NCBI GenBank assembly: GCA_965215365.1
Contig: CBDCDS010000003.1
Span: 1,312,001 to 1,376,000 of the forward strand
DNA from: Gammaproteobacteria bacterium
GTDB lineage: Bacteria > Pseudomonadota > Gammaproteobacteria > Eutrophobiales > Eutrophobiaceae
DNA: 64,000 bases
Reading direction: 5' to 3'
In this document: one piece after another, positions 3,402 through 64,000 of the stretch
How positions within the stretch are numbered: the first letter of the stretch is position 1
Layout of the letters: each line of letters opens with the position of its first letter
Made by a program: the position numbers and the translations under genes
Notes under the pieces: model-generated
Database searches by the model: none
Told to the model about the DNA's origin: nothing
The model's input: the letters and a program-made list of their open reading frames with translations, nothing else

Positions 3402-3405
<4 letters not shown>

Positions 3406-17764: not shown

Positions 17765-18040
17765 ATGCTTGAACAACTGAATGACTGGGCGCCGTTACTG
17801 ACTATCCTGGTGAGCCTGGGTGGCCTGCAGCTGGGCTTATACCTGGGCCTGCGCACCGATATGCGTGCCTTGGTCGAGGTCCTGGCTGGGGTGCGCGAAC
17901 GTCTCGCGGCCTTAGAAGCGCGCGTCGGTAATTTAGAGACCAGCGTCGGCAATTTAGAGACCCGCGTCGGTAATTTAGAGACCAGCGTCGGCAATTTAGA
18001 GACCCGCGTCGGCCATGTCGAGGCCCACCTAAAAGCATAG
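17765..18040 (+). CDS. Small membrane-anchored coiled-coil protein with heptad expansion
   Basis: Paralog of 11354-11563 with extra repeats (R/S)VGNLET x4; RBS GGAG. Confidence 0.75.
   Translation: MLEQLNDWAPLLTILVSLGGLQLGLYLGLRTDMRALVEVLAGVRERLAALEARVGNLETSVGNLETRVGNLETSVGNLETRVGHVEAHLKA
17921..18012 (+). repeat. In-frame VNTR: 42-bp unit x2 (21-bp heptad x4)
   Basis: CGCGTCGGTAATTTAGAGACCAGCGTCGGCAATTTAGAGACC occurs exactly twice, followed by CGCGTCGG. Confidence 0.9.
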
Positions 18041-18294: not shown

Positions 18295-21200
18295 TTGTCT
18301 GTGATCCGCATGATGTATCGAACGGCAGGCTTTGCGCACCGCCCGGCGCTCGCCGGGTTGCTGCTGTCAGTGGGGGTGGTCCTGGCCGTCTCCGGTCTGC
18401 TCCGGGCCGGGCCCGTTGCAACGCCCGGTGCCCGCCTCACCGCTGGCGACCTGACGGTCTCTATGGACGAGACCGGCCTCATCACCGGCCTGACCGCTCC
18501 GTCCGGGCGCGACTATCACGTGAACGAGCCGCCCACTGCGCTGCTCAGCCTCATTGTTGAAGATAAACCCACCGACCTACCGTCCGCCGGTACGGCCGCC
18601 CACTATCGCCCCCTCCGCTGGCGTTTTACACCCGGGACACCGCAGCTCGGCGAGACCGCGCGCGGCACTTACACGTTTGACTTTGCCGAGCACCTCAGCG
18701 TGACGGTGGCGTTCGTGGAAAAGCCCGGCTATGCCACTCTGGCCGTAACTGCCCTGCACAATCCCGCCGGCAAGGATGTGCGGCATATCTTGTGGGGGCC
18801 GCTCAGTACCTCTATTACCGAGAGTGTCGGCGAGACGGTGGGCGTGGTGCGCAGTCGTGACTTTGCCATCGGCTTATTCGGCACCAATGCCAAGACCTTA
18901 GGCGGCTGGGCGCGCGCATATCCGGCCACGGGGCTCAAATCCTTAGCCGCCGGTGAGGACACCGCCGGGGATGTGCGTACCGTCGCACAGGACTTTGCAA
19001 CCGCCGCGGCGGTGCGCACGGTGCCGGGCAGTATTCTACAAGCCCATACCCAAGACTACACCCAAGGGCGCATGGTGGAGGTGGCGCCCACCGGTGGTCA
19101 GGAAGGGCGCCGCCGGTGGGTACCCGCTCTGACGGGAGAGTTCGCCACAGCCGGGCAACTAGTCGGCTCGCAGGTGGCGTTGTTCGGTGTCGCCGGCACC
19201 GATGCCGCCGCCGTGACGCATGCGTCACGGCGCGAGGCCTTGTATGTCAAGGTGCTGGCGCGCATTGGCGCTATTGAGGTAGGGGAGGGCATGCCCCATC
19301 CGCAGCTCGATAAGGTCTGGGCTAAGCAAGCACTGCGCGCCAATGCGCCGTATTTGCTGTTAGAGGACTTAGACAGTCACAACTTGGACACCGCCTTGCG
19401 CTGGGCTAATGAGCTCGGCTGGGACACGGTCGCTAAAGACGCCTGCTGGGGCGTGTTCGCGCGCGGGGGTGATTTCCCTGTCAGTGACGCCTTCGGCGGC
19501 TCGGACAATGCCTTGCGCTCGGTCATTGAACGCGCCCGCGCCCGACACACCACGCTGGGCGTGGACATCCGCTCGAACTGGTTACCGGCACCCTATGCCA
19601 CGACCCACCTCGGCGGGTTAGCAGCGGCACAACATGCCACCTTAGCCGCACCCGTCACCGCCACGGCCACGACACTGACCGTGGCACCGTTACCGGGCGG
19701 TGATTTGCAGCCCGGGTTCGCCACCACGGGGTACGTGGTCATCGGCACGGAGCTGATGGGTTATACCGAGACCACCCCTGTGGCCGGCAACCTGGTATTG
19801 TCGGGACTCACGCGCGGGGTCGATGCCACCTTAGCCCAGGGCCATGCAGTCGATGCACCGGTCAAGCGGGTGATTCGCAAGACGCAGTGCGGGGAATATC
19901 TGGCCGGCTTGACGCTGATGCGCGGGCGGGTTGCCGAGCGGCTCATCGAGGTACTGGACTTAGGCCTGGGCGGCGTGTCCTTAAGCGGTGCTGAGGCGCT
20001 GGCGGCAGACGGCTACGGTGCGCTGGCGGCGAACCTGGTGATGGACAAAATCTATCGCGCCCTGGCCGACAACGACAACCTCATTACCGAGCTCAGTGTG
20101 CTCACGCCTTATACTTGGCATGTCAACACCCGTGCCGGTGCGGTCAATCAGGACCGGCGCATTTTGTCATCGGGCTTAGCCGCCCCGCAGGTGTCTTATC
20201 CGTGGGGTGCGCAGGTCTCTGCCCGGCGTAATTATCTGGCGCGCCCGATGCTGGGACGCTGGCATATCCCAGACGCCAATGGCTGGCGTTGGGCGCTGGG
20301 CAAGGCCGCCGCGCTCGATGCCGGGTTGGCCTATGTCGGGCGCGTGCGCGATGCGGCCCGGCATGACGCCCCGTTGCGCCGTGAGATTCGCCACTGGCGC
20401 TATGCCGCACTGGCCGGTGCCTTCGATGCGCCCAATCGCTTAGTGATGCAAGAGCGGGGCGCGTATTTTAAGTTAGACCGGGTGCGCCATGCCGGGGCCA
20501 TTGGCCCGACCTGGAAATTATCCGACTGGGCACCGCTCGGCGCCGCCGGCGGGCAGCGCCGCAACAGCCGTTATTTAGCCCCGCAGCTGCGGGGTTTTCC
20601 CACCGCCAACTTAGCGCGTGATGCCGAGGTGACGGTGTCCGGCGCCTTAGCGCCGGAATTTGACGGCGCGCACGCGCTCGATGGGTTCACGGTGACCGGT
20701 CACGATGGCGGTGCCGGGGAATGGGCGCTTGCTGCCGGTGCCCGTGAGAAGTGGATTGAGCTGACCTGGGAGACCCCCCGGCGGGTGCGTGAGATCATAT
20801 TGTTTGACCGCGCCTCCCCGCAGCAGAACGTGCGCGCCGGGAGTTTGACATTGACCCGGGCCGATGGCACCACCACCACGCAGCGGGTCGATGCCTTGCC
20901 GCTGACCGGCGGGGCGAAGCGCATCGCCCTGTCCGACCAAGCGCTGGTCAAGGCGCGTTTCACCCTGCACGCGACCCAGGGTGCCGCCCCGGGCTTAGCA
21001 GAGTTCGCAGTGTTAGGCCCCGCGCCGGTCTATCAGGTTAGCAACTTAGCCACCGGCGCCGTAGTCAGTGGCGTGACAGCCGGTCAGGGCGCGCGCATCA
21101 CTGACGGGGTGATAGCGCCCGGCGCCGAGCCGGCGGCGACACTGACCGGCACTTGGGCACAGTTGGACTTAGGCGGGCTGCATTATATCGGCGGGCTGAG

Positions 21201-24200
21201 CGTCTGGCATGCCTTCGGTGACGGGCGGCGCTACCAGGATGTGGTCTTCGAGCTGGCCGACAACCCGGCCTTTACTAACTCGACTATCGTCTTTAACAAC
21301 GATGCGGACAATTCTCTGGGGCTCGGTGCCGGGACCGACGCCCCGTACACCGAAACTGCCGCCGGCAAGCAGGTGCTGTTCGCCCCGACCCCGGCCCGTT
21401 ACCTGCGACTATGGTCACAGGGCAATACCGTCAACGATGCCAACCACTTAGTGGAAGTGGAAGTCTATGGCACCGGTCACGGCACGGCGACCGCCACGCT
21501 CAGCGCCTCGAGCACCGCGCCCGGGGATCTCCGCGCGGCGATAGACGGCCACCCCGACACCGCCATCGATCTCGGCACCGGCCCACAGTACTTACAGCTT
21601 GACTTAGGCACCCCTCGGCAGGTGAACAGCTTAGTCGTGCTGCGCGAGGGGGACTTGCGCGCCTACCGCAACGTGGTCTATCAGTTATCGAACGACGCCG
21701 ACTTCGCCGACACAGTGACCACGGTGTTTCACAACGACTATGACGCGGTGCACGGCTTGGGCCTCAAAGAGCCGTCCCAAGGCGAGTATGCCGAGACGCC
21801 CAACGGCCACTATGTGCGCTTTGCGCCCCGCCCGGCGCGCTATGTGCGCCTGTATTCCAACGGCTCAGACCGCGACCGCCACAACCGCTATCACGAAGTA
21901 CTGGTGGGCACCGAGCATGCGACCCGGTTGCCCACACCGACGCCGGCCTGGGCACCGGCCGAATCAGCGCAGGCCGACAACACGGCGCGGGCCGACAACG
22001 CAGCGCAGCAGGGCGCCCCGCCCGGCGCCCCAATCCCCGGCCCGGCGGCGGGCGGCGCCGGACTGGGCGCGCGGGCGTTGCTGGGGCCGCGCCAGGATCC
22101 CCCTGGGAAGCTGGTGAGTAACACCGGCGAGGTTGCGAGCAAGACCTTCCGAAACCACATCGCGACAAAATTCACAACGGGCAACTACAGGCGGGGCTAC
22201 GTGATTTCGTCGGTCGGTGTACACCTCGGCTCAGCCTCCCTGCCCTTAGGAACCAGCATTCCCCTGACCGTTAAAATTTTGCGGGGCAGCAGAAACCCCG
22301 GCACTAATGTGGTGGCCGAGCTGGGGGCGCCGGACCGTCTCACTGAGAATGCGGTCAACACCTTTACCGCGCCTGCAAACACAGTGCTGGCCGCCAACAC
22401 GACCTACTTCCTTAGTGTGTCGCCGAAGGGCCTATTAACACGAGCCAACATCCAAGTATCCGCGACCACCTCTGACAGCCAGACGGGTGCGACGGGTTGG
22501 AGCATTGCCAACAGCAGTCGCACCAGCACAAGGGTGCGTGGCAGAGATATCTGGCAGGATGACAACAGCTCTCTCATGTTTGTGATCAAGGGCATCAGCG
22601 CCCCCTTGCGCAAACCCAAGGGTTTTAAGGCAACGCCAGGCAACAGGAAGGTGACGCTGACCTGGACTAACCCGTCCGATAGCACCATCACCAAGTATCA
22701 GTATCGCCAAGGCACGGGCACGACCGTCACCTGGGGCGAGTGGACAAACATTCCCAGAAGTTCGGCCACCACCACCTCACACACCGTGACCGGCCTGGAC
22801 AACGGCACGGCCTACAGCTTTGAAGTGCGCGCCGTGGTCGACACGGAGATCGGTCTGGCCTCGGATGCCGTGACGGCCACGCCGGGCGTCCCCTTGAACT
22901 TCGTCACCTGGCACCTACCCCGTGAAGTGCTTTATTTGAAGGATGCGCCGATATTGGCACCGACGAGACTGCCCCGGGCCGGCAACAACGTGGGCACGGT
23001 GACCTATGCCTTAACACCGGCGCTGCCGACGGGCCTGCAATGGGACGCTAAGGAGCGCACGATTTCAGGCACCCCCACGGTGAACCAGGCGCGCACGCAA
23101 TACACCATGACGGCGACCGAACCTTCAAATGCGAACGCTGTCGACGGCGTCTACACCTTCCACCTGACGGTGGCGGCCGAGGATAACAAGCCCACCTTCG
23201 GCAGTGAGACGCAGGCCGACCTGTTACTGGCAAGAGGCACGGCCATGCCTACCGTCACACTGCCGAAAGCCACGGGCGGTGATGGCACGCTGACCTATCA
23301 GTTATTGCCGTTGAAGTGGAGTAACATGGGCTACAACCAGAACGCGGACCGGGAGAGCAACCAACCCCTGGACTATGCCGGGGTAGCGAACCTGCCGGCA
23401 GGGCTCAGCTTCAATACCACCACCCGCGCGCTGTCGGGCACGCCCACAGCGAACTGGACACGCGCGCTATATACCTTAGTGGCCACGGACGCTGATGGCG
23501 ACACGGCGGGCCTGAACTTCCATGTGGCGGTGGCAAACGCGTTAACCCCGGCCACCAGTTCCAGCACTCTGGAGGTCTGGACGGACGATGCGCTGAGCCA
23601 TGTCAACCGTAATGCCACTAAGCCGGGCTCGCCGTCGACCCGCATTGACTTACATGCGGCGCGCAATGAATATGAGAACGGCCAGATAGTGCTGCGTAGT
23701 GATGCGGATTTGACCATTACCGAAGTGGCGTTTAGTGACCTCACCAGCGGCAGCAACACGATTGCTAAGGCCCACCTTGACTATCGGTTTGTGGAATACC
23801 ACGTGCCGGTGATGCCGACCCGGGCGACCGATTTGCTCTACGCGGCCACTGTTCGTCCTAATCGCCCCGACCCCCTGTCCAATGCTCGCGCCATTATCGT
23901 ACCGGCGAACGTCACCCAACCCATCTTAGTGACGGCGTATGTCCCCAAGGGGCAGGCGGCGGGGACTTATACCGGCGATGTGACGGTCAAGGTCAAGACG
24001 GCGCAGGGAAATCAGACCAAGACCGTGCCCTTGAGCGTGAAGGTCTATGCGGTGCAGATTCCCGATGCCAAGGACAGCGAGTTCTTACAGTACAACTGGA
24101 CCGAGACGAACATGTACTCCGTGCGCAATGATGAGGACATGGGGTTTTCGTACTACGGGATTTATAAGTACTCCGATGACTGGTGGGGCTTAATGGGCAA

Positions 24201-27200
24201 CATGGCCGACACCATGTCCAAGCATCGTCAGAACATGACCATTGCCTGGACGGTGGCACTGCTGCGCGACGGCGGCAGTAAGGCCAAGTCCGATGGCACG
24301 TATGACTGGCAATGGGGGCTGTTCGATAAGTTCATCGACACTTATAACCAGGGTGGCATGTCGCATTTCGGTGGTGGGCATTTGTCGTTCCACTGGGAGG
24401 GCGGCAAACCGCGCAGTTGGGATGCTGCCCGGCATTTCGAGGTGGCGATGCTCGCGCCTGACGCGAACGGTGAGACGCGCATCGGCGGTGCCGTGGTGCC
24501 GACCTCGACGAGCAATGCCGACGACGAGCGCACGGTGGCCCGGGATTGGCTCAATGCTTATCTGCCGGAGCTGGACAAACATATTGCTGCGAAGGGCTTA
24601 CTCGGCGGTGCCAAGCTGCGCGATAAGTGGTTCCAACATCTCGGTGATGAGCCGGGCGGCAGCACTGATATCCAACAATGGGCGTATATGGCAGACACGC
24701 TCAAGGACAACGCGCCCAAGATACGTAATTTAGATGCAGCTCAGACCAGCGTCGGGGGGCTTTTGCAGGCTGCCAATGCGGCCCGGGTGAATGCCTGGAG
24801 TCCTTACCTGATCGAGTTTGACAAGCGCAAAACCTTATTTGCTGACCAGCAGGCGCTCGACAAGCCGGTGTTTGTCTATGTGATGTACACCCCCAGGGAC
24901 AAGAACGACTATAACCGCCTGTTCAACAACCATCTGGTATCGACTTCCACGCTGTATTGGTATTACTTCCGTCATAACTTAGACGGCAATCTGCACTGGG
25001 CACTGAACGTCTGGTCTATTACCGCGGGAGATGCTTCCAAGGGCGATACCCACATCGTCTATCCGGACATCGGCGGGCGCACCCTGCGCTCATCGCTGCG
25101 CTATGAAGCCGAGCGCGGCGGGCTGGAGGACTTAGAGCTATTAAAGCTGTATAAGAAGACCTCTGCCAGCGCGGCTAATACACTGGCTGAGAAGCTCACC
25201 ACCACGACCCGCACCAACCACAACAAGGATGTGTCAACGTACCGCACTGTGCGTGCAGAGTTGCTGAGTGCCGCCACCAATCCCCCAGAGCTGTCGATTA
25301 ACAGCGTAGCGGTATTGGAGGGCCGCACCGCGCGTTTTACGGTGAGCCTGTCGAAGGCGCACACCGCCAACGTCACGGTGCAGGCGGCCACCTCGAACGG
25401 CACGGCCACGGCGGGCAGCGACTACACGGCTAAGACGGCCACACTGACCATTGCCGTCGGCAGCACGAGCGCCACGTTTGACGTGGCCACCAGCGCTGAC
25501 GACGAAGTAGAAGGCACCGAGACCTTCGAGGTGACCCTGAGCGGCCCAACGAATGCCACGCTCAAGGAGGACGGTGACACCGGAGTCGGCGCCCTGCACG
25601 ACGGCGACGGCGGGACGCGCTTCGATGTGCCTCAGAATCACTCGGACGTCACCCGTGGTGGGGGGGCTTGGACGTGGGATTTTGGCCGCAACCCCCCCAA
25701 ATTTGACAACTACGGTAAAAATGGCTATGTCACCGGAGCTAACGGCGCCTATCTGGAATACACCTTTACCGGCACCGGGGTGGACTTTATCTCACAGGTT
25801 GGCCCTAACCACGGGGATGTGGATATCCATATCGACGGCACCAAGATGGCTACCGTGAACTTGTACCAAAGCGGCAGCGTCACCGGCAAGTACGTGGCCT
25901 ACAGCGTGCGCGACCTGACCGCCGGGGAGCATACCATCCGGGTGACTAAGCGGTCTGCTACCTGGCTCATCGTGGACGCCTTCTCTGTGTACGGCGCGCC
26001 CTTGAGCTTCGTTACTTGGCACCTGCCCCCTGAGGTGCGCTATGTGAAGGATACGGCGATATTGGCGCCGACCCGACTGCCTCGGGTCGGCAACGGCGCG
26101 GGGACGGTGACTTATGCCCTGACACCGACACCGCCGACAGGCCTGCAATGGGACGCTAAGGAACGCACGATTTCAGGCACTCCCACGGTGAATAAAGCGC
26201 GCACGCAATACACCATGACGGCGACCGATGCGATAGGTGGTACCAAGGCCTTTACCTTCCACCTGACGGTGGCTAACAAGGACAACAAGCCGACCTTCGG
26301 CACTGCCAAGCAAACCGACCTGTTGCTGAAGAAGGACTCAGCTAGGAGCGTGACACTACCGGCGGCCACGGGCGGCGATGGCACGTTGACTTATCAGTTA
26401 TTGCCGTTGAAGTGGAGTAACATGGGCTACAACCAGGGGGTACGAGAGAACAACCAACCCCTGGACTACGCCGGGGTGGCCAACCTGCCGGCGGGTGTGA
26501 GCTTCGATGCCACCACCCGCGTCCTCTCGGGCACGCCCACGGCGAACTGGACGCGCGCCTTGTACACGTTGGTGGCCACGGATGCCGACGGCGACACGGC
26601 GACGCTGAGCTTCCATGTGGCGGTAGTGACCGCACTGACCCCGGCTACCGGCTCGAGCACCCTGGAGGTATGGACGGACGATGCGCTCAAGCATGTCAAC
26701 CGCGATGCCACCAAGCCGTCCTCGCCGTCAACGGCCATCGCCTTACATGCGGCGCGCAATGAATATGAGAGCGGCCAGATAGTGCTACGCAGTGATGCGG
26801 ATTTGACCATCACCGAGGTGGCGTTTGACGACCTCACCGATGGCAGCAACACGATTGCTAAGACCCACCTTGACTACCGGTTTGTAGAATACCACGTGCC
26901 GGTGATGCCGACTCGGACGACCAAGCTGCTCTACCCGGCTGCTAATCGCCCCGATCCGCTATCGAATGCCCGCTCGATTGTGGTGCCGGCGAACGTCACC
27001 CAACCCATCTTAGTGACGGCATACATCCCCAAGTGGCAGGCGGCGGGCACTTATACCGGCGATGTGACGGTGAAGGTCAACACGGTCCAGGGGGTTAAGA
27101 CCAAAACTGTGTCGCTGAGCGTCAAGGTGTACCCCGTAGGGATCCCCGATGCCAAGGACAGCGAGTTCTTGCAGTACAACTGGACCGAGACGAACATGTA

Positions 27201-30200
27201 CTCCATCCGCAATGAAGAGGACATGGGGCGCTCGTACTACGGGATTGACAAGTACTCCGATGACTGGTGGGGCCTGATGGAAAACATGGCCGATACCATG
27301 TCGACGTATCGTCAGAACATGGCCATTGCCTGGACGGTGGGCTTGCTGCGCGATGGCGGCAGTAAGGCCAAGGCCGATGGCACTTATGAGTGGGACTGGC
27401 GGCTGTTCGACAAGTACATCGAGACTTATAACCAGCGCGGCATGAGCCACTTCGGCGGCGGGCATTTGGCATTGCACTGGACCGGCAAGCCCGGGAGTTA
27501 CAATGGTTATATTGACTTCCAAGTGGCGCTGCTGTCTCGTGACGCAGACGGTGAGACGCGCATCGCCGGTGCCCTGGTGCCGACCTCAATAGCCAATGCT
27601 GACGAGCGCACCGTTGCCCGCGATTGGTTGAATGATTATTTGCCAGAATTGGACACCCATATTGCGGCCAAGACCTTAGTGGGCGGCGCCAAGCTGCGCG
27701 CGCAATGGTTTCAGCATATCGCCGATGAGCCGCACGCGGGCAGCGAAATCGAACAATGGGTGTATATGGCGGACGCACTCAAGGCCAAGGCGCCGAACAT
27801 GCGTAACCTTGATGCGGCGCTGCATGGCATACCGGAACTGGTGAAGAACGCAGACAAGGTGACGGCCTGGAGTCCTTACATCGACAGCTTTGGCCAGAGA
27901 AAAGACTTCTTTGCCCAACAGCAAGCGGCCGGTAAGCCGGTGTTTATCTACGTGTTGGAGATTCCCAGCGGGCAGAATGACCTCAACCGCCTGTTCAAAA
28001 ACTACCTGGTATCGACCACCACGCTCTATTGGCATTACTTCCGCCATAATGCGGACGGCAATCTACACTGGGCGCTGAACGTCTGGTCCATTGCGTCGTC
28101 GAGCGGCAATGAAGGCGATACCCACATCGTGTACCCGGACATTGGCGGGCGCACCCTGCGCTCATCGTTGCGCTATGAAGCCGAGCGGGCCGGGTTGGAG
28201 GACTTGGAGTTGTTAAAGCTTTACAAGGCGGAATCTTCGGACGCGGCCAACACGCTGGCCGACAAGCTGTTAAGCCCCCCAGGCGCCGAGAACCGACAAG
28301 ACCATAATAAAAATTCGTCAGAGTACCGCGCCGTGCGTCAGGAGCTGCTGGAGGCGCTGCCAGCGGTACCGCTGCCGCCGTTGCCTAAGCCCACGGGTTT
28401 TACGGTGACTCCGGGCGGAGGTGAAGTGACGCTCGCCTGGTCTGAGCCTGCCGATAACGGTATCACCAAATATCAGTTCCGTCAGGGCGACGGCGTCCCC
28501 GTTACCTGGGGCGATTGGACGGACATTCCCAACAGCGATGCCGATACCACCTCGCACACGGTGACCGGCCTGACCAGCGGCGTGGCCTACAGCTTCGAGG
28601 TGCGCGCCGTGAGGGGGGCAACGTCCGGCTCGGCCACGGCTGCCTTGACCGTCATGCCGACAGCCCCCCAACTGGTGAGTAACACCGGCGAAGCTGTTGC
28701 GAGCAAGACCTTCCGAAACCACATCGCGACAAAATTCAGAACGGGCAAAGGCAGTGCGGGCTACGTGATTTCGTCGGTCGGTGTACGCCTCGGCTCAGCC
28801 TCCCTGCCCTTAGGAACCAGCATTCCCCTGACCGTTAAAATTTTGCGGGGCAGCAGAAACCCCGGCACTAATGTGGTGGCCGAGCTGGGGGCGCCGGACC
28901 GTCTCACTGAGAATGCGGTCAACACCTTTACCGCGCCTGCAAACACAGTGCTGGCCGCCAACACGACCTACTTCCTTAGTGTGTCGCCGAAGCTCCCATT
29001 AACACGAGCCTACATCCAAGTATCCGCGACCACCTCTGACAGCCAGACGGGTGCGACGGGTTGGAGCATTGCCAACAGCAGTCGCACCAGCACAAGGGTG
29101 CGTGGCAGAGATATCTGGCAGGATGACAACAGCTCTCTCATGTTTGTGATCAAAGGTACCAACCACAGCAATGCGAAACCCACAGAGCTTTCAGCGATAC
29201 CGGGTAACGGCAAGGTGACGCTCAGTTGGGCTGATCCCTCTGATATTACCATTACCAAGTATCAGTATCGCCAAGGCACGGGCACGACCGTCACCTGGGG
29301 CGAGTGGACAAACATTCCCAGCAGTTCGGCCACCACCACCTCACACACCGTGACCGGCCTGGCCAACGGCACGGCTTACAGCTTTGAAGTGCGCGCCGTG
29401 GGAGGGGAGGTGACCGGTCCGGCATCAGATGTTGTGTCCGCCACACCGGTCGTGCCCACTCTGAACTTCGTCACCTGGCACCTGCCCCCTGAGCTGCGCT
29501 ATGTGAGGTATAGGGCTATCCTGGCGCCGACCCGGCTGCCGCGGATCGATGGCGGCACGGGCACGGTGACTTATACCTTAACACCGGCGCTGCCCACGGG
29601 CCTGAAGTGGGACGCTAAGGAACGCACGATTTCAGGCACCCCCACCGCAGATAAGGCGCGCACGCAATACACCATGACGGCGACCGATGCGGCCAGTCGC
29701 ACTGCCACTTATACCTTCCACCTGACGGTCGCCGCCGCCGACAAAAAGCCCACCTTCGGCAGTAAGACGCAGGCCGACCTGCTGCTGAAAAGAGGCACGG
29801 CCATGCCTACCGTCACGCTACCGGCGGCCAGTAGCGGCGACGGCACGCTGACCTATCAGTTGTTGCCATTGCGGTGGACGAATCAGAGCTATAACAAAGG
29901 AGTGCGGGAGACCAACGCACCCTTGGACTACGCCGGGGAGGCCAACCTGCCGGCCGGGCTCGGTTTCAACACCGGCACGCGGGTACTTTCAGGCACTCCC
30001 ACCGAGAATTGGACACGCGCCCTTTATACCTTAGTCGCCACAGACACCGATGGCGACACGGCGGCGCTGAACTTCCATGTGGCGGTGGTGGATGCGTTGG
30101 CCCCGGCCACCAGCTCTAGCGCTTTGAATATATGGACGGACGATGCGCTCAACCGTGTGAACCGCGACGCCACCCAGCCGAACTCGCCGTCCAAGGCCAT

Positions 30201-51200: not shown

Positions 51201-54200
51201 TGCTAAGGAACGCACGATTTCAGGCACCCCCACCGCAGATAAGGCGCGCACGCAATACACCATGACGGCGACCGACAAGGCTAGTAGTACCGCCACCTAT
51301 ACCTTCCACCTGACGGTAGCGGCCGCGGATAACAAGCCCACCTTCGGCAGTAAGACGCAAGCCGACCTGTTACTGGAGAAGGATGCGCTGATGACCGCGG
51401 TCACACTGCCGGTGGCTACGGGCGGCGATGGCACGCTGACCTATCAGTTATTGCCGTTGAAGTGGAGTAACATGGGCTACAACCAGGGGGTACGAGAGAA
51501 CAACCAACCCTTGGACTACGCCGGGGTGGCCAACCTGCCGGCGGGTGTGAGCTTCAATGCCACCACGCGCGTCCTCTCGGGCACACCCACGGCGAACTGG
51601 ACACGCGCGCTCTATACCTTAGTCGCCACGGATGCCGACGGCGACACGGCGACGCTGAGCTTCCATGTGGCGGTGGTGCCCGCACTGACCCCGGCCACCG
51701 GCTCGAGCGCCCTGGAGGTATGGACGGATGATGCGCTGAGCCATGTCAACCGCGATGCCACCAAGCCCAATTCCCCGTCGACGGACATTGATTTACATGC
51801 GGCGCGCAATGAATATGAGAGCGGCCAGATAGTGCTGCGCAGCGATGCGGATTTGACCATTACCGAGGTGGCGTTTGACGACCTGACCGATGGCAGCAAC
51901 ACGATTGCTAAGACCCACCTTGACTACCGGTTTGTAGAATACCACGTGCCGGTGATGCCGACCCGGACGACCCAGCTGCTCTACCCGGCCGATAATCGTC
52001 CTGATCCGTTGTCCAATGCCCGCTCGATTGTGGTGCCGGCGAACGTCACCCAACCCATCTTAGTGACGGCGTATGTCCCCAAGGGGCAGGCGGCGGGGAC
52101 GTACACCGGCGATGTGACGGTCAAGGTCAAGACGGCGCAGGGAAATCAGACCAAGACCGTGCCCTTGAGCGTGAAGGTCTATGCGGTGCAGATTCCCGAT
52201 GCCAAGGACAGCGAGTTCTTACAGTACAACTGGACGGAGACAAACATGTACTCTATCCGCAATGAAGAGGACATGGGGCGCTCGTACTACGGGATTGACA
52301 AGTACTCCGATGACTGGTGGGACTTAATGGGGAACATGGCCGACACCATGTCCAAGCATCGTCAGAACATGACCATTGCCTGGACGGTGGCACTGCTGCG
52401 CGACGGCGGCAGTAAGGCCAAATCCGATGGCACGTATGAGTGGGACTGGCGGCTGTTCGATAAGTTCATTGACACTTATAACCAGCGCGGCATGACCCAC
52501 TTCGGCGGCGGGCATTTGGCGATGCGCTGGAACGGGCAGCCGGGGAGTTACGATGCGGCCTTGGATTACCAGGTGGGGTTGCTGTCTCGCGACGAAAACG
52601 GTGAGACGCGCATGGGTGGCGAGAAGATTCCGCTCTCGATATTATTTGAATTTTTGTATCCCGACGCTCGGGCCTGGCTGGATGCCTATCTGCCGGAATT
52701 GGACACCCATATTGCGGCCAAGACCTTGGTCGGCGGTGCTAAGCTGCGCGATAAGTGGTTCCAACATCTCGGTGATGAGCCGAAGTCGAGTCAACTCCCG
52801 CAATGGGCGTATATGGCGGACATCCTCAAGGGCAACGCGCCCAAGATACGTAATTTAGATGCAGCTCAGACCAGTGTCGGGGGGCTTTTGCAGGCTGCCA
52901 ATGCGGCCCGGGTGAATGCTTGGAGTCCTTACCTGATCGAGTTTGACAAGCGCAAAGACAAATTTGCTAAACAGCAACAGGCCGACAAGCCGGTGTTTGT
53001 CTATGTGATGTACACCCCCAGGGACAAGAACGACTATAACCGCCTGTTCAACAACCATCTGGTATCGACTTCCACGCTGTATTGGTATTACTTCCGCCAT
53101 AACTTAGACGGCAATCTGCACCGGGCGTTGAACGTCTGGTCCATCGGGCCGGCGAGCGGTGCCGAAGGCGATACCCACATCGTCTATCCGGACATCGGCG
53201 GGCGCACCCTCAGGTCATCGCTACGCTATGAAGCTGAGCGCGGCGGGCTGGAGGACTTGGAGCTGTTGAAGCTGTATAAGGCGACCTCTGCCAGCGCGGC
53301 CAACACACTGGCCGAGAAGCTCACCACCACGACCCGCACCAACCACAACAAGAATGTATCGAAGTACCGCACCGTGCGTACCGAGTTGCTGAAGGCTGTG
53401 GCTGTGGCCGTCCCCGCCGTCACCGCCACCGCCACCGATACCGCCGCCACCGAAGACGACACCAGCGCCACGGCCACTTTCACGGTGGTACTCGACACCG
53501 AGCCGTCCGCCGACGTCACCGTCACCGTCACCGCGCCCACGGGCTTAGATCTCGACGGCCCGGACAGCGCGAAGACCTTCACCTCCAGTGAAGACCTCAC
53601 CTTCACCGATAGCACCTGGAGCACCGCCCAGACGGTCACCGTGCGCGCCCCCGACGACAGCACCGACAGCCCCAGTCAACGGGAACTGACCGTCACCTAC
53701 GCCGCCACCTCGACCGACACCGATTACAGTGGCCTTAACGGCACTGCCGCCACCGTCACCGTCACGGATAATGACGCCACTGAGGTGACCTTGGCCGGTA
53801 GCGCCGGGGATGTCACCGAGGGCGGCACCAAGGAGTTCACGGTCAAGTTAAACCGCGGCTTGGTCAACGGCGAGGTCCTGCCTGTGCCGCTGACGGTTGC
53901 CACCGGTAATGGCACGGCGACTCGCAACACCGACTACACAATAGCTTGCCCCAACGCGCCGCCCGTCGGCGTGACGTGTAATGACCTGAACACTGCGACC
54001 ACTCCCACCGTGACCTTCACCGGCCCCTCCACCGGCGCCACCGCCACTGAGATCACCTTGACCCTCACCGCAACGACCGATTCCATCGCCGAAGCTGGCG
54101 GGGAGTCCGTCACCCTTGGCCTCGGCACGCTTAACACCAGCTCTGGCACCGGCTTGGACGGCGGCGCTTTGGGCACCGACAGTCTGGCGGACTTCACCAT

Positions 54201-57200
54201 CTTCGACCCGGCCATCGCTCTGGCCGCCCCCACCAGCTTCACCGCCACGCCGGGCGACAAGCAGGTGACGTTGAGCTGGGATGATCCGTCCAACAGCGCC
54301 ATCACCAAGTATCAGTATCGCCAGGGCACCGGCACGACCGTTGTCTGGGGTGGCTGGAAGGACATCCCCAACAGCGATGCCGATACCGCCTCGTACACGG
54401 TAACGGGCTTAACCAACGGTACCGCCTACAGCTTCCAGGTGCGCGCGGTCGCCGGCACCACCCTCGGCGCGGCCTCGGCCACCGTCACCGCCACCCCTAA
54501 TACCGAGGCGCAGGCGCAGACCGTCACGTTCGTAAGCAATCTGGATAGCTCACGCGACGATGCTAATCCATATGACGTGCGCCAAGCGCAATCCTTCACT
54601 ACGGGTGCTGAAAGTGCCGGCTATCTCCTGTCGTCCGTCCGCATCTATCTCCATGGAGATGCCTCTGGCAGTGGGACCCCTGTGGTCGTCATCCGCGCAA
54701 ACAGCAGTGGCGACCCCGGTGACATCTTCGTCACCCTGACCAACCCGGGCAGCTTTTCCAGTAGTGCGGGCCTGGCCACCTTCACCGCCCCGGCCGACAC
54801 GACGCTCGCCGCGAGCACCACCTACTGGGTGGTCATCAACGACTCAGGCGGTAGAAAGCTTTCCTGGCAGGCGGCCGACAGCAACACATCTACGGGACAG
54901 TCCGGCTGGAGCATGGGTGCTTCAAAGTATCGAGCTAGTGACTCTTGGAAAACTAGTGGCGCATATCTATCAATGGACCTCCGCGGCACGTTCAAAACGA
55001 CCACCCCCGCCAACACCGCCCCCACAGTGGCCAATACCATCCCCGACCAGGAGGCACTCACCGGCCAGGCCTTCAGCTACCAGTTCCCGGCCAATACCTT
55101 CAACGATGCCGACAGTGGCGACACGCTCACTTACACTGCCACGCTGCTCAGCGGCACGGCGCTGCCCGCCTGGCTGAAATTTGCCCCCGACACCCGCACT
55201 TTCTCTGGCACACCGAAACAGATAAACGTCGGCAAGTTTACGGTGAAGGTCACCGCCACAGACGGCGACGCCGCTTCGATCAGCGACAATTTTGTTATTA
55301 CCGTGACGCGCACAGAGGCCACGGTACAGTTCTCGCAGGCAACCAATTCCATTACCGAGGGCAACGCCGCCACCGTGACCCTGCAACTGTCCAAGGCGGT
55401 GGCCAAAGTGGTGGACATCTACCTCAAGGTCACTGCCGGCACTGCCACTTCGGGCACCGACTACACCGCCGGCACGGTGACCGCGCCCGACAGCACCGCC
55501 GGCACCTACAGGGTCACTATTGCGGCGAGTGCCACCTCGGGCTCAGTGAGCATCCCCACGACTGACGACTCGGCCTTCGAGGGCAGCGAGTCCTTCACTT
55601 TGAGCATCCATCAGATTGCCAGCGACAGTGTCATCGGGCGCGGCACCGCCACCACGCAAACCGTGACCATCGAGGACAACGAGCCAACCGTGGTGTTATC
55701 ACAAACGAGCCGCACGGTCACCGAGGCCACCGGCAGCGGGCGCACCGCACAATACACCGTCAAGCTGCCCGCCCAGCCCACGGCCGATGTCACCGTCGCG
55801 GTGGCTAGTGCTGCGGTCACCGTGGCCACGGTGTCCCCCACCAGCCTGACCTTCACTGACAGCACTTGGAGTACGGCGCAAACCGTCACCGTCACCGCCG
55901 TGGACGATAACCTCTACCAGAGCACCGACCGCACCACGACTATCACCCATACACCGTCCTCGACCGACACCCGCTTCACGAGCGGCCCCCACCCCAGCGT
56001 GGCCGTCACCGTCACTGATGATGAAACGCCGGCGGCCCCGGACGCCCCGACCGGCCTGACGGCCATGGCGGGCGACGCTGATGTCGCCCTGAGCTGGACT
56101 GACCCGAGCAACGCCAGCATCACCGAGTACGAATACCAGCAGCGCACCGGCACTGGCAACTGGGGTAATTGGACGGATTTCACCAGCGCTGCCGACACCA
56201 CGACCCACACGGTGACGAACTTGACCAACGGCACGGAGTACGACTTCCGAATCCGCGCCGTTAACGCGGGCGGGAACAGCGCTGCGTCGGACGTCGTGAC
56301 CGCCACCCCGCTGGCGGCGACCGCCCCCAGCAAGCCACGGAACCTGAGGGCCGAGCCGGGCGGCGGGCAGGTCGTTCTGAATTGGCGTGCCCCCGGAACT
56401 AATGCTGACGCGATCACGAAGTACCAGTACCGCCGAGGCTCGGGCGACCCCTTCGTCTGGGCAGCGTGGGCGGACGCCTCCGGCACCACCACCCACACAG
56501 TGACGGGTCTGACGAACGGCACACAATACCGCTTCCAGGTGCGCGCGGTGGCGAGCGCGGTGTTCGGCGCGGCGTCGGACACCGTGGAAGCGACTCCCAA
56601 CCCGAAACCGGCCGCCCCGACGAACTTCACGGCTGTAACGGGGGATAAAAGCGGCGAGGTGGACTTGAGCTGGACGGCCCCGACCGGCACCATCACCAGG
56701 TATGAACACCGCCGCCGCCCGGTCGGGGGCAACTGGCCACAAATCTGGACCCCTTTGAATATCCCCAGTGCCACCAGATTCACGGCGGGGAGCCTGACGG
56801 ACGGCACGGAATACCAGTTCGAGCTGCGCGCCGTTAACGATTCGGGTGCGGGCGCCACCGCCAGCGCGACCGCGACCCCGCTGAACCCGAGCGCCCTGGC
56901 CGCCCCGACCGGCTTCACGGCCGCGGCGGGGGATGCCAGCGGCGAGGTGGACTTGAGCTGGACCGCCCCGACCGGCACCCTCAGCGGCTACCAGTACCGC
57001 CGGGGTATGGGTAGTCCTCTGGTCTGGGTGGCGTGGACGGACATCGCGAACAGCGCCGCCCTGACCAGCTATACGGTGACGGGTCTGACGGACGGCACGG
57101 CCTACAGCTTCCAGATCCGCGCAGTCAGCGGGACGGGCGGCTCGACGGTGCTCGGTGCAACCTCAGGCACCGCCACCGCCACGCCGTCCGCCCCGGGCAA

Positions 57201-60200
57201 CACCGCCCCGACGGTGGCCAATGCCATCCCCAACCAGCCGGCGTTCACCGAGCAGGCCTTCAGCTACCAGTTCCCGGCCGATGCGTTCACCGACGCCGAT
57301 AACGACGCGCTCACTTACCGCGCCACGCAGGGCGACGGCACGGCACTACCGAACTGGCTGACCTTTACCAAAGCCACCCGCACCTTCTCCGGCACGCCGA
57401 CCGCGGCCGGCACGCTGACAGTCAAGGTCACCGCCGCTGACGGCAACGGCGGCACGGTCAGCGACGAGTTCGATATCACCGTGACCGTGAGCAAGCGCCT
57501 GCCGTTGACCTTAGCCGCCATCGCCACGGACAACACCATCAACATCGCCGAGAAAGCCGCCGGCTTTGCGATTACCGGCGCCACCGGCACCGAGGGCGGG
57601 GCGACCGTGACGGTGACGGTGGGCAGCGGGACGTTGACCACCACCTCGGCCACCTCGGGCACGGTCGGTGCCTGGTCGGTCAGTGTGCCGGGCAATCAGT
57701 CCTACATCACCGGCACGTCCGTGGCCGTCGCGGTCGATGCCACCAAGTCCGGGCTGGCCGATGCCACGCAACAGGCCCGCACGTTGACTGTGGACTTGGT
57801 CAAGCCCACCGCCACCTACACCGCGCCGGGCAGCTTGCAGGTGGGCACGGCCATTACCGACATCGCTCCGACCAACCCCAGCGCCGACATCAAGACCGGC
57901 GGCTACACGGCGAGCGCCCTGCCGGCGGGCCTGGAGATAAACGCCAACACCGGCGAGATTACCGGCACGCCGACCACGGCCAAGACCGCCACCACCACCG
58001 CCACGGTGACGCTCGAAGATACCGCCGGTAACACCAATGAGGTTGACATTGACTTCCCGGCGGTCACTAAGGGCGCGCAGACCTTGGCCGGCCTGGCCTA
58101 CGCCCCGAGCGCGGCGGGCGTGGGCGCGAAGGTAGACCTGACCGCACCCACGGTGTCCCCGGCGGCGAGCGGTGCCCGCGGCGCTATCACCTACAACACT
58201 GGCGATGCGACCGTCTGCACGGTCGACACCACCACCGGGACGCTGACCCTCAAGAAGGTGGGCACCTGCGTGGTCACCGCCACCGCCGCCGGGGATGCCA
58301 ACTACGACGCCGCCACCGACACGTTCACCGTGACCGTGCAGGCGAACCTGCCGTTGACCCTGGCCGCCATCGCCGGCGATGACACCATCAACATCGCCGA
58401 GAAGACCGCCGGCTTTACCATCACCGGCACCACCGGCACGGTCAGTGGGGCGTCCGTCACGGTCACGGTGGGCAGCACTGCGTTGACGGCCGTCACCTCG
58501 GGCAACGACGGCACCTGGTCGGTCAGTGTGCCGGGCAATCAGTCCTACATCACCGGCACGTCCGTGGCCGTCGCGGTCGATGCCACCAAGTCCGGGCTGG
58601 CCGATGCCACGCAAGCGACCCGCACGTTGACTGTGGACTTGGTCAAGCCCACCGCCACCTACACCGCGCCGGGCAGCTTGCGGGTGGGCACGGCGGTGAC
58701 CGTGACCCCGACCAACCCCAGCGCCGACATCAAGACCGGCGGCTACACGGCGAGCGCCCTGCCGGCGGGCCTGGAGATAAACGCCAACACCGGCGAGATT
58801 ACCGGCACGCCGACCACGGCCAAGACCGCCACCACCACCGCCACGGTGACGCTCGAAGATAATGCCGGTAACACCGCCGAGGTCACGATTAACTTCCCGG
58901 CCGTGGCCAAGGGCACACAGACCTTGGCCGGCCTGGCCTACGCCCCGAGCGCGGCGGGCGTGGGCGCGACGGTAGACCTGACCGCACCCACGGTGTCCCC
59001 GGCGACGAGCGGTGCCCGCGGCGTTATCACCTACAACACTGGCGATGCGACCGTCTGCACGGTCGGCACCACCACCGGGGCGCTGACCCTCAAGAAGGTG
59101 GGCGCCTGCGTGGTCACCGCCACCGCCGCCGGGGATGCCAACTACGACGCCGCCACCGACACGTTCACCGTGACCGTGCAGGCGAACCTGCCGTTGACCC
59201 TGGCCGCCATCGCCGGCGATGACACCATCAACATCGCCGAGAAGACCGCCGGCTTTACCATCACCGGCACCACCGGCACGGTCAGTGGGGCGTCCGTCAC
59301 GGTCACGGTGGGCAGCACTGCGTTGACGGCCGTCACCTCGGGCAACGACGGCACCTGGTCGGTCAGTGTGCCGGGCAATCAGTCCTACATCACCGGCACG
59401 TCCGTGGCCGTCGCGGTCGATGCCACCAAGTCCGGGCTGGCCGATGCCACGCAAGCGACCCGCACGTTGACTGTGGACTTGGTCAAGCCCACCGCCACCT
59501 ACACCGCGCCGGGCAGCTTGCGGGTGGGCACGGCGGTGACCGTGACCCCGACCAACCCCAGCGCCGACATCAAGACCGGCGGCTACACGGCGAGCGCCCT
59601 GCCGGCGGGCCTGGAGATAAACGCCAACACCGGCGAGATTACCGGCACGCCGACCACGGCCAAGACCGCCACCACCACCGCCACGGTGACGCTCGAAGAT
59701 AATGCCGGTAACACCGCCGAGGTCACGATTAACTTCCCGGCCGTGGCCAAGGGCACACAGACCTTGGCCGGCCTGGCCTACGCCCCGAGCGCGGCGGGCG
59801 TGGGCGCGACGGTAGACCTGACCGCACCCACGGTGTCCCCGGCGACGAGCGGTGCCCGCGGCGTTATCACCTACAACACTGGCGATGCGACCGTCTGCAC
59901 GGTCGGCACCACCACCGGGGCGCTGACCCTCAAGAAGGTGGGCGCCTGCGTGGTCACCGCCACCGCCGCCGGGGATGCCAACTACGACGCCGCCACCGAC
60001 ACGTTCACCGTGACCGTGCAGGCGAACCTGCCGTTGACCCTGGCCGCCATCGCCGGCGATGACACCATCAACATCGCCGAGAAGACCGCCGGCTTTACCA
60101 TCACCGGCACCACCGGCACGGTCAGTGGGGCGTCCGTCACGGTCACGGTGGGCAGCACTGCGTTGACGGCCGTCACCTCGGGCAACGACGGCACCTGGTC

Positions 60201-63200
60201 GGTCAGTGTGCCGGGCAATCAGTCCTACATCACCGGCACGTCCGTGGCCGTCGCGGTCGATGCCACCAAGTCCGGGCTGGCCGATGCCACGCAAGCGACC
60301 CGCACGTTGACTGTGGACTTGGTCAAGCCCACCGCCACCTACACCGCGCCGGGCAGCTTGCGGGTGGGCACGGCGGTGACCGTGACCCCGACCAACCCCA
60401 GCGCCGACATCAAGACCGGCGGCTACACGGCGAGCGCCCTGCCGGCGGGCCTGGAGATAAACGCCAACACCGGCGAGATTACCGGCACGCCGACCACGGC
60501 CAAGACCGCCACCACCACCGCCACGGTGACGCTCGAAGATAATGCCGGTAACACCGCCGAGGTCACGATTAACTTCCCGGCCGTGGCCAAGGGCACACAG
60601 ACCTTGGCCGGCCTGGCCTACGCCCCGAGCGCGGCGGGCGTGGGCGCGACGGTAGACCTGACCGCACCCACGGTGTCCCCGGCGACGAGCGGTGCCCGCG
60701 GCGTTATCACCTACAACACTGGCGATGCGACCGTCTGCACGGTCGGCACCACCACCGGGGCGCTGACCCTCAAGAAGGTGGGCGCCTGCGTGGTCACCGC
60801 CACCGCCGCCGGGGATGCCAACTACGACGCCGCCACCGACACGTTCACCGTGACCGTGCAGGCGAACCTGCCGTTGACCCTGGCCGCCATCGCCGGCGAT
60901 GACACCATCAACATCGCCGAGAAGACCGCCGGCTTTACCATCACCGGCACCACCGGCACGGTCAGTGGGGCGTCCGTCACGGTCACGGTGGGCAGCACTG
61001 CGTTGACGGCCGTCACCTCGGGCAACGACGGCACCTGGTCGGTCAGTGTGCCGGGCAATCAGTCCTACATCACCGGCACGTCCGTGGCCGTCGCGGTCGA
61101 TGCCACCAAGTCCGGGCTGGCCGATGCCACGCAAGCGACCCGCACGTTGACTGTGGACTTGGTCAAGCCCACCGCCACCTACACCGCGCCGGGCAGCTTG
61201 CGGGTGGGCACGGCGGTGACCGTGACCCCGACCAACCCCAGCGCCGACATCAAGACCGGCGGCTACACGGCGAGCGCCCTGCCGGCGGGCCTGGAGATAA
61301 ACGCCAACACCGGCGAGATTACCGGCACGCCGACCACGGCCAAGACCGCCACCACCACCGCCACGGTGACGCTCGAAGATAATGCCGGTAACACCGCCGA
61401 GGTCACGATTAACTTCCCGGCCGTGGCCAAGGGCACACAGACCTTGGCCGGCCTGGCCTACGCCCCGAGCGCGGCGGGCGTGGGCGCGACGGTAGACCTG
61501 ACCGCACCCACGGTGTCCCCGGCGACGAGCGGTGCCCGCGGCGTTATCACCTACAACACTGGCGATGCGACCGTCTGCACGGTCGGCACCACCACCGGGG
61601 CGCTGACCCTCAAGAAGGTGGGCGCCTGCGTGGTCACCGCCACCGCCGCCGGGGATGCCAACTACGACGCCGCCACCGACACGTTCACCGTGACCGTGCA
61701 GGCGAACCTGCCGTTGACCCTGGCCGCCATCGCCGGCGATGACACCATCAACATCGCCGAGAAGACCGCCGGCTTTACCATCACCGGCACCACCGGCACG
61801 GTCAGTGGGGCGTCCGTCACGGTCACGGTGGGCAGCACTGCGTTGACGGCCGTCACCTCGGGCAACGACGGCACCTGGTCGGTCAGTGTGCCGGGCAATC
61901 AGTCCTACATCACCGGCACGTCCGTGGCCGTCGCGGTCGATGCCACCAAGTCCGGGCTGGCCGATGCCACGCAAGCGACCCGCACGTTGACTGTGGACTT
62001 GGTCAAGCCCACCGCCACCTACACCGCGCCGGGCAGCTTGCGGGTGGGCACGGCGGTGACCGTGACCCCGACCAACCCCAGCGCCGACATCAAGACCGGC
62101 GGCTACACGGCGAGCGCCCTGCCGGCGGGCCTGGAGATAAACGCCAACACCGGCGAGATTACCGGCACGCCGACCACGGCCAAGACCGCCACCACCACCG
62201 CCACGGTGACGCTCGAAGATAATGCCGGTAACACCGCCGAGGTCACGATTAACTTCCCGGCCGTGGCCAAGGGCACACAGACCTTGGCCGGCCTGGCCTA
62301 CGCCCCGAGCGCGGCGGGCGTGGGCGCGACGGTAGACCTGACCGCACCCACGGTGTCCCCGGCGACGAGCGGTGCCCGCGGCGTTATCACCTACAACACT
62401 GGCGATGCGACCGTCTGCACGGTCGGCACCACCACCGGGGCGCTGACCCTCAAGAAGGTGGGCGCCTGCGTGGTCACCGCCACCGCCGCCGGGGATGCCA
62501 ACTACGACGCCGCCACCGACACGTTCACCGTGACCGTGCAGGCGAACCTGCCGTTGACCCTGGCCGCCATCGCCGGCGATGACACCATCAACATCGCCGA
62601 GAAGACCGCCGGCTTTACCATCACCGGCACCACCGGCACGGTCAGTGGGGCGTCCGTCACGGTCACGGTGGGCAGCACTGCGTTGACGGCCGTCACCTCG
62701 GGCAACGACGGCACCTGGTCGGTCAGTGTGCCGGGCAATCAGTCCTACATCACCGGCACGTCCGTGGCCGTCGCGGTCGATGCCACCAAGTCCGGGCTGG
62801 CCGATGCCACGCAAGCGACCCGCACGTTGACTGTGGACTTGGTCAAGCCCACCGCCACCTACACCGCGCCGGGCAGCTTGCGGGTGGGCACGGCGGTGAC
62901 CGTGACCCCGACCAACCCCAGCGCCGACATCAAGACCGGCGGCTACACGGCGAGCGCCCTGCCGGCGGGCCTGGAGATAAACGCCAACACCGGCGAGATT
63001 ACCGGCACGCCGACCACGGCCAAGACCGCCACCACCACCGCCACGGTGACGCTCGAAGATAATGCCGGTAACACCGCCGAGGTCACGATTAACTTCCCGG
63101 CCGTGGCCAAGGGCACACAGACCTTGGCCGGCCTGGCCTACGCCCCGAGCGCGGCGGGCGTGGGCGCGACGGTAGACCTGACCGCACCCACGGTGTCCCC

Positions 63201-64000: not shown

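Follow-up and report, generated by a model that had tools for sequence, protein, structure and literature searches.

The window analysed here is a 64,000-nt stretch from a gammaproteobacterium of the family Eutrophobiaceae (C3:1312001-1376000 of a 2.73-Mb, three-contig genome, one contig of which measures 2.63 Mb), and the subject of this report is a giant open reading frame (ORF) within it, hereafter the giant. We consider it probable that the giant constitutes a single genuine gene whose product is an exported protein of 1.94 MDa, in which an adhesin-like scaffold carries nine active beta-N-acetylgalactosaminidase modules. A previous sequence-only reading of the window had reported a hidden ORF of more than 45.7 kb in frame +1, open for more than 15,200 codons, and had proposed extending the contig to find its stop. 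The open frame was borne out: the giant occupies positions 18295..63999 (+) of the window, comprising 15,235 codons whose translation contains no stop, and is still open at its 3′ end. The frame is not endless, however, as it terminates 9,803 nt past the window end, at C3:1385803. The full ORF measures 55,509 nt, 2 % of the genome, and encodes 18,502 amino acids (aa) with a predicted mass of 1,937 kDa and pI of 5.15.

The giant ORF is real. It begins with a TTG start codon preceded 8 nt upstream by AGGAG, which resembles a ribosome-binding site. In-frame stops, which the earlier reading had named as grounds for discarding its claim, were sought in the assembly and none was present across the 18,502 codons, compared with 677-785 stops in the other plus-strand frames and 257-864 in the minus-strand frames of the same region. 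From base composition, about 401 stops were expected in the first 13,060 codons. Minus-strand ORFs of up to 2,047 aa are present at window positions 55699-63999 (-), overlapping a G+C-rich (GC 0.69) tandem-repeat region, and were taken as shadow ORFs of the repeats and not as genes. Scans for promoters and terminators returned nothing usable beyond chance.

The catalytic modules were identified by several comparisons. Nine matches to the Pfam family GH123_cat (PF13320) were found, all in the one open frame, with scores of 89.1-112 bits against a cut-off of 23.1; module 1, for example, scored 92.3 bits, and its N-terminal domain matched PF22680 at 49.3 bits (cut-off 27). Nine W[FI]QH[LIM][GA]DE motifs carrying the adjacent Asp-Glu (DE) pair and nine GDTHIVYP motifs were located, in agreement with the earlier description of nine GH123-like modules, each with an adjacent Asp-Glu pair and a DUF4091-like C-terminus. 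A sequence search of the PDB returned eight distinct sequences at E <= 0.01, all of them beta-N-acetylgalactosaminidases or GH123 enzymes. The best was 8k2j (NgaDssm; E 1.4e-34), in which QHLADEP aligned to QHLGDEP of the module, and the match to canonical GH123 was weaker (E 8e-13 versus 1e-34 for 8k2j). An AlphaFold model of a module, for which the input alignment combined all nine modules with two homologues from outside, showed a beta-sandwich followed by a beta/alpha region (predicted local distance difference test, pLDDT, 68.9; predicted template modelling score, pTM, 0.73). Foldseek placed 8k2j first for this model (E 7.9e-35, template modelling (TM) scores 0.67/0.74), with BvGH123 (E 6.6e-26), CpNga123 and other groups behind, and all 18 rows listed at ranks 1-22 were GH123/DUF4091-type enzymes. 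By sequence and predicted structure, the modules are members of the GH123/DUF4091 family with an N-terminal beta-sandwich together with a (beta/alpha)8 barrel. Among solved structures they appear nearest, by a wide margin, to the Group 3 NgaDssm type and not to canonical GH123. The GH123 identity proposed earlier therefore stands at the level of the family, by Pfam, sequence and fold, but needs amending as to type.

According to the available part of Sumida et al. 2024 (PMC11087588), substrate-assisted catalysis in this superfamily relies on the DE motif as its catalytic pair, and DE mutants lose activity; nine residues are described as superfamily-wide (D95, W115, D327, E328, Y392, G427, W431, Y466 and R478 of NgaLy), and the W115A variant of NgaLy was insoluble. 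The same part of that paper reports that NgaDssm releases N-acetylgalactosamine (GalNAc) and Gal-beta1-3GalNAc, and that its activity on GalNAc4S-beta-4MU is 183.8 % of that on the unsulfated substrate. The DE pair is present in all nine modules of the giant and in both modules of a paralogue in the same genome (described below). Mapped through the 8k2j alignment and residue spacing, and not by direct alignment to NgaLy, the conserved superfamily residues are kept at eight of nine positions in modules 1-8 and at seven of nine in module 9.

Several points count against our reading, those on the modules being given here and those on assembly and export with the relevant evidence below. All nine modules have Leu at the position of the structural Trp (NgaLy W115), where the two nearest outside homologues have Trp, and module 9 has Arg at the substrate-recognition Trp (W431 position). 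Identity between the modules and NgaDssm is only 24 % in the structural alignment, and 145 of the 590 residues of the module model have pLDDT <50, forming low-confidence loops, some of which lie near the barrel. In addition, the accessible text of PMC11087588 states that OR-type enzymes of the superfamily did not cut chondroitin sulfates and gives the natural substrate of NgaDssm as unknown. The two substitutions would suit modules that mainly bind glycans, making the protein a multivalent adhesin for GalNAc surfaces with little or no turnover. The adhesin-like scaffold, the two discoidin-type lectin-like domains in the head part and the giants of relatives that share head and tail without a recognisable catalytic domain (G006) are consistent with the same alternative. 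We nevertheless consider it unlikely. Glycosidase derivatives that only bind usually lose their catalytic residues, and retention of the DE pair in nine of nine modules over synonymous divergence (dS) of up to 0.77 argues for catalysis, as does the full two-domain enzyme fold of the predicted module model. The adjacent sulfatase, fucosidase and TonB receptor likewise point to degradation and uptake.

Divergence among the modules indicated that the array is old and maintained. Protein identity among the nine ranges from 68 to 99 %, and they resolve into four to five diverged types that are 68-78 % identical. We computed the ratio of non-synonymous to synonymous divergence (dN/dS) on 55 pairs, comprising the nine modules of the giant and the two of the paralogue; it was 0.16-0.38 in 54 of these, which were all the computable ones. 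Purifying selection is evident from these ratios on every module copy. The 11 modules probably form one clade, judging by their mutual identity of 67-99 % versus at most 38 % to any outside sequence. The sole recent duplicates are modules 5 and 7 (dS 0), which share the longest exact repeats outside the stalk (926 and 913 nt) and belong to a recent segmental duplication of He_PIG domains and GH123 modules at window positions 38400-40494 and 44800-46890 (aa ~6689-7405 and ~8821-9537). At least five module lineages separated by dS of 0.3-0.8 must be old, distinct and constrained, and were not made by an assembler. The possibility of assembly-inflated copies, raised in the earlier reading, does not fit such divergence, since modules that differ by dS of up to 0.77 are not clones.

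The assembly was compared with Logan contigs from public sequencing runs, in pieces of up to about 2.3 kb. Contigs from four runs, which come from three studies, leave none of the 30 bins across the first 20 kb uncovered; the pieces of one run (X1) are exact, those of two are near-identical and those of one (X6) are 1-10 % diverged. Most single-base indels listed for X6 occur in compensating pairs, and one 2-nt deletion at 29458 has no listed partner. Joints in these contigs (e.g. 25266>28382 and 22095>36038) begin or end at module or domain borders; structural variation was considered as their cause and rejected, as they fit cross-mapping among paralogous modules and the paralogue. Contigs of this length do not prove the order and number of modules. 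In the stalk, 12 consecutive 840-nt units are 100 % identical in nucleotides, forming a perfect 10,080-nt array that could have been mis-counted by the assembler. Together with the exact repeats shared by modules 5 and 7 and the many contig joints between repeated parts, this array is what a partial assembly artefact would lead one to expect, in which repeats were mis-joined or over-expanded and the true gene has fewer modules or repeats, or is split. We judge such an artefact quite improbable, given the divergence of the module lineages, a frame that stays open across every junction for 55.5 kb and a genome in three contigs. Homologous ORFs of comparable build in relatives also speak for the assembly as it stands.

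These relatives, G003 and G006, are same-genus genomes, each assembled independently as a single contig, and neither has a GH123 match. A second ORF in the genome of the giant repeats its first 1,270 aa at 98 % identity; in G006 two ORFs carry them at 73 % identity, and the corresponding figure for ORFs of G003 is 54 %. The G006 giants measure 6,359 aa and, if the contig is circular, 14,032 aa (G006:C1; L094, L095, L096 and L154), whilst those of G003 measure 13,397, 7,373 and 1,981 aa (G003:C1; L097-L101). The scanned part of the 14,032-aa ORF contained only Big_12, fn3, Calx-beta and He_PIG domains. The 13,397-aa protein of G003 carries DUF5703_N and FG-GAP repeats followed by 18 stalk repeats of the same type as those of the giant and a Calx tail. 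Homologous giants in independent single-contig genomes indicate that genes of such size and build are normal in the genus, and head, stalk and tail form a conserved scaffold with a variable body. As an aside on the sampling of this lineage, the elongation factor EF-Tu of the genome (C3:1471779-1472966, L086) shares its 90 %-identity cluster with no other sequence in a set of about 15 billion proteins. Although 22 congeneric species are represented, the lineage seems sparse at the protein level. When solved EF-Tu sequences were ranked against it, proteobacterial ones came out nearest, a rough placement in Pseudomonadota.

The second ORF in the same genome (C3:1680131-1692586) encodes 4,151 aa, of which the first 1,267 are 98 % identical to the giant, and contains two GH123-type modules. 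Its locus (C3:1680131-1698378; L092, L102) continues with an aberrant tail, followed by Phage_Mu_F, AAA_22 ATPase and phage virion morphogenesis ORFs. These phage ORFs are followed by a frame of 817 aa, which over its 3′ part shares 96 % DNA identity with the last ~506 codons of the giant. The arrangement suggests that the paralogue is a copy broken up by remnants of a Mu-like phage. Its fate, and that of an ordinary GH123 gene elsewhere in the genome that carries an in-frame TAG, raises the prospect that the giant is itself silent or decaying, a relic like its paralogue without a functional product. We regard this as very improbable, because all 18,502 codons are intact, dN/dS is <0.4 in every computable module pair and the frame is kept in the diverged X6 relative by indels that, among those listed, are mostly compensating.

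We searched for the architecture elsewhere with a profile of the module. Against 1.84 billion protein representatives it returned 8,086 family matches, of which the best 150 were listed, a depth at which two-module proteins scoring below about 250 bits could escape. Among these best 150, only P0008 (4,149 aa), the paralogue from the same genome, has more than one module, the longest other match is 2,386 aa, and the best outside identity to the modules was 38 %, the nearest natural homologues being uncharacterised. When 185,579 species were scanned, each through a single genome, 76 loci at 25-36 % identity were recovered, from Paenibacillus, Cohnella, Kribbella, Streptomyces, Nonomuraea and Armatimonadota, and a metagenome scan gave 51 loci at 23-39 %. 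Two adjacent GH123-type matches were present at six of the 127 fetched loci and were fused in one ORF at none of the six. These tandem yet separate genes, observed in Kribbella, Cohnella, Armatimonadota and one metagenome contig (L021, L023, L025, L050, L064 and L113), are an unfused counterpart of the array in the giant. The outside homologues are single-catalytic-domain surface proteins, three of five scanned pairing GH123 with a CE2_N-like domain. A word-indexed search for longer module-bearing proteins found none, but is weak, covering proteins of 1,034-2,950 aa only, and literature searches turned up no multi-GH123 protein. In the searches made, the giant is unique in module number and scale. 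Within the set of species representatives searched, the GH123 cargo is confined to this genome. The earlier reading was aware of no described example of this architecture, and none turned up across the protein, genome, metagenome and literature searches, with the qualification that a same-family multi-catalytic precedent exists, with six GH5 domains (in the available part of PMC5831590; see below).

GH123 matches in relatives numbered two of 40, both of the ordinary type. The genome of the giant has two ordinary GH123 loci of its own (C3:108066-112787), with orthologues in G001 and G007; in one, the in-frame TAG lies inside the match, and in the other the catalytic match is split in two parts within an 823-aa frame. 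Derivation of the modules from these genes was considered and rejected, as identity is 20.5 % over 185 aa.

The anatomy of the giant was drawn from Pfam and NCBIfam scans and a self-similarity map. In order, it comprises a signal-like start, a head, lectin-like domains, nine GH123 units, a connector, a stalk and a Calx-beta tail. The signal-peptide-like N-terminus (18295..18429 (+)), as judged by eye, consists of basic residues followed by hydrophobic PALAGLLLSVGVVLAVSGLL and has no lipobox Cys. An uncharacterised head of ~730 aa follows (18430..20607 (+)). Standalone homologues of the head exist (48 % identity, 766 aa), and it had no match in Pfam, in NCBIfam or, by sequence or by profile, in the PDB. 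Its structural model was poor (pLDDT 52.1, pTM 0.42) and gave weak Foldseek matches (TM 0.19-0.25) to GH97, GH36, GH129-like and other glycosidases, including alpha-galactosidase-like (beta/alpha)8 folds; Atlas matches below 0.9 likewise serve as leads only. An enzymatic function of the head is a lead from this poor model and is not claimed. Next, at 20608..21894 (+), Pfam identified a DUF7402 domain (aa 772-906) and two F5/8 type C domains (aa 928-1200), which are discoidin-type, galactose-binding-like domains. The first of three copies of the choice-of-anchor R domain is at 22111..22596 (+) (NF041539, 74 bits, cut-off 30), and the second and third are at aa 3460-3622 and aa 12079-12232.

Each of the nine units consists of two He_PIG immunoglobulin (Ig)-like domains and a GH123-type module, and the units are separated by Calx-beta together with a CE2_N-like beta-sandwich, which resembles a carbohydrate-binding module (CBM), and/or fn3. 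Module 1 (23545..25266 (+), aa 1751-2324) has its DE pair at QHLGDE and is flanked by fn3 and two He_PIG domains before it and by Calx-beta and a CE2_N-like beta-sandwich after it. Module 2 (26638..28350 (+), aa 2782-3352) has the pair at QHIADE. Module 3 (30100..31860 (+), aa 3936-4522) contains a 17-aa insertion and is the most divergent copy, at 67-71 % identity to the other modules. Module 4 is located at 34300..36015 (+) (aa 5336-5907) and module 5, with its pair at QHMGDE, at 38746..40494 (+) (aa 6818-7400). Module 6 (41455..43155 (+), aa 7721-8287) precedes module 7 (45142..46890 (+), aa 8950-9532), which is 99 % identical to module 5 and a recent duplicate of it (dN 0.002, dS 0). Module 8 is at 48307..50013 (+) (aa 10005-10573). 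Module 9 (51688..53391 (+), aa 11132-11699) has an intact DE pair, and the Trp-to-Arg change noted above occurs at GNLHR.

A non-catalytic connector follows the modules (53392..57498 (+)), composed of Calx-beta-like, fn3, choice-of-anchor R and He_PIG domains and including four consecutive fn3 domains at aa 12584-12964. The stalk starts at 57499 and its array passes the window end (57499..64000 (+) within the window); it spans aa 13069-18039, over which a unit of ~281 aa is repeated in tandem about 18 times. Every repeat holds He_PIG and weak matches to Ca2+-stabilised adhesin or Ig-like domains, such as Ca_tandemer at 36.1 bits, below its cut-off of 50, and Ig_like_ice, also weak. Beyond the stalk are Calx-beta domains and then a C-terminal domain that is conserved among the giants of relatives and contains no transmembrane segment. 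Across the last 1,000 aa, the sole Pfam matches were to Calx-beta and He_PIG, and RTX repeats are absent. The earlier description of modules threaded among Ig, Fn3, Calx-beta and CBM-like domains, behind a signal peptide and ahead of a repeat stalk, matches this anatomy. Its comparison to a cellulosome is an analogy only, as Pfam scans of aa 1-2560, aa 11701-13340 and the last 1,000 aa, which include one copy of each repeated domain type in the self-similarity map, found no cohesin or dockerin.

Three co-directional genes precede the giant, encoding a TonB-dependent receptor (11813-14350 (+)), a sulfatase (14368-15954 (+)) and a GH29 alpha-L-fucosidase (16114-17703 (+)). The activity of NgaDssm on 4-sulfated beta-linked GalNAc fits the adjacent sulfatase. 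Between the fucosidase and the giant, a 91-aa ORF (17765-18040 (+)) contains tandem 21-nt repeats encoding VGNLETS/R heptads; in Pfam it gave nothing but weak matches of the coiled-coil type, none of which reached its cut-off. Further upstream (window 2212-11326) are an altronate/galactarate-dehydratase-type enzyme, an aldo-keto reductase, a fumarylacetoacetate-hydrolase-family protein and an aldehyde dehydrogenase, which we take as possible deoxy-sugar or fucose catabolism. Adjacent AAA_22/AAA_16 ATPase ORFs at 5805-7121 and 7184-8518 resemble the AAA_22 ORF in the disrupted paralogue locus.

Downstream, 79 nt after the stop of the giant and before gspC, a gene encodes a 1,051-aa RTX-repeat protein (L001:9883-13038 (+)). 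This protein has 14 RTX nonapeptide-repeat matches and a PPC domain, and its scores against RTX toxin and serralysin models are all far below the cut-offs. The genes gspC, D, E, F and G of a type II secretion system (T2SS) follow, co-directional with the giant. One giant in each of G003 and G006 ends about 5 kb upstream of a co-directional secretin gene, and the available part of a preprint by West-Roberts et al. 2023 (10.1101/2023.11.21.568195) describes T2SS-like loci beside giant genes in Omnitrophota. The signal-like N-terminus, the adjacent gsp genes and the lack of features of type I secretion systems (T1SS), type V secretion systems or sorting signals make export through Sec followed by type II secretion the best reading. 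The genome has three secretin genes, so that the adjacency of giant and gsp is suggestive only; a folded 1.9-MDa substrate would be far larger than classical T2SS cargo; and the putative signal peptide was called by eye.

Under the probable reading of an exported polyenzyme, the giant would cross the inner membrane via its N-terminal signal sequence and be exported by the T2SS encoded downstream, with the conserved C-terminal tail and stalk probably retaining it on the cell surface or close by; the display far from the cell put forward in the earlier reading is an inference. Both the lectin-like head and the nine modules would then face outward onto a GalNAc-containing, probably sulfated and fucosylated glycan. 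Hydrolysis may proceed by substrate-assisted catalysis, in which Asp would orient the 2-acetamido group and Glu act as acid/base, with GalNAc or short oligosaccharides as products. The sulfatase and GH29 fucosidase encoded alongside would trim the same glycan and the TonB-dependent receptor take up the products, and subsite specificity may vary among the four to five diverged types of module. As to origin, a single-module GH123 and CE2_N-like cassette, with its nearest relatives in single-module surface enzymes of Gram-positive bacteria and Armatimonadota, may have been taken up by a genus-specific giant scaffold that already existed, with amplification following in place.

A bolder proposal, which we advance tentatively as a possibility, is that megadalton T2SS-linked scaffolds that swap cargo occur genus-wide, that a Gram-positive-type GH123 and CBM cassette was amplified here to nine active sites, and that the head is perhaps a tenth, different glycosidase. 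If so, the giant would be a single-chain glycan-degrading brush with the highest count of same-family glycosidases per polypeptide in the searches made, giant adhesin scaffolds would be a platform on which polyenzymes evolve in general, and cargo of roughly 2 MDa would lie within the capacity of type II secretion. Should the modules be active, a small 2.7-Mb genome would put 2 % of its DNA into one extracellular degradative machine. The giant would also offer a route to natural substrates for Group 3-type beta-GalNAc-ases, nine related modules for the study of specificity and proximity effects, and a means of probing how large a type II secretion substrate can be. In the relatives, where different cargo sits on the same scaffold, domain capture and amplification can be studied as a natural experiment.

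Few glycoside hydrolases have more than two to three catalytic domains, and the giant surface proteins of bacteria are commonly regarded as adhesins without catalytic function; the giant, whose modules belong to a recently expanded beta-GalNAc-ase superfamily, joins these two kinds, the giant repeat adhesin and the multi-catalytic carbohydrate-active enzyme. Among characterized enzymes, NgaDssm (8k2j), an oligosaccharide/monosaccharide-releasing beta-N-acetylgalactosaminidase of Group 3, shares with the modules the two-domain fold and the aligned DE motif, but is a single-domain enzyme with a 542-aa chain, whereas the giant carries nine copies on an 18,502-aa chain with Ig and CBM-like flanks, its modules having Leu at the conserved structural Trp position. 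The canonical GH123 enzymes (BvGH123, 5l7r; CpNga123, 5fqe; NgaP) have PF13320, the DE dyad and the fold in common with the modules, yet are single-catalytic-domain proteins and more distant from them than 8k2j. To our knowledge, RTX/T1SS giant adhesins have been described as non-catalytic. These adhesins, such as the ice-binding Marinomonas primoryensis adhesin of 1.5 MDa (as described in the accessible parts of PMC4083281 and PMC5550230), share with the giant a megadalton size, a near-identical Ig-like tandem extender array and ligand-binding domains at one end. The giant differs from them in its nine enzyme modules, its Sec-like N-terminus, its C-terminal stalk and its T2SS neighbour, as well as in having RTX repeats only in a separate downstream gene and none in its last 1,000 aa.

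Precedents for catalytic repetition and for gene size come from other lineages. Naas et al. 2018 (PMC5831590), in the part available, describe six consecutive GH5 domains in ~1,900-aa ORFs of the rumen Bacteroidetes Ca. MH11. These resemble the giant in placing several same-family catalytic domains on one secreted polypeptide, and differ in being about ten times smaller, in belonging to GH5, in export by the type IX secretion system and in having no adhesin-like stalk. Omnitrophota giants (10.1101/2023.11.21.568195) share T2SS-like neighbours and proposed attachment and carbohydrate-degrading domains according to the accessible portion of the preprint; they belong to another phylum and have other domains, e.g. 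a GH76-like fold found only by structure prediction, and that portion reports no array of nine same-family catalytic modules. In the cellulosome, separate enzymes are joined on a scaffoldin through cohesin and dockerin, whereas in the giant all modules are carried on one chain.

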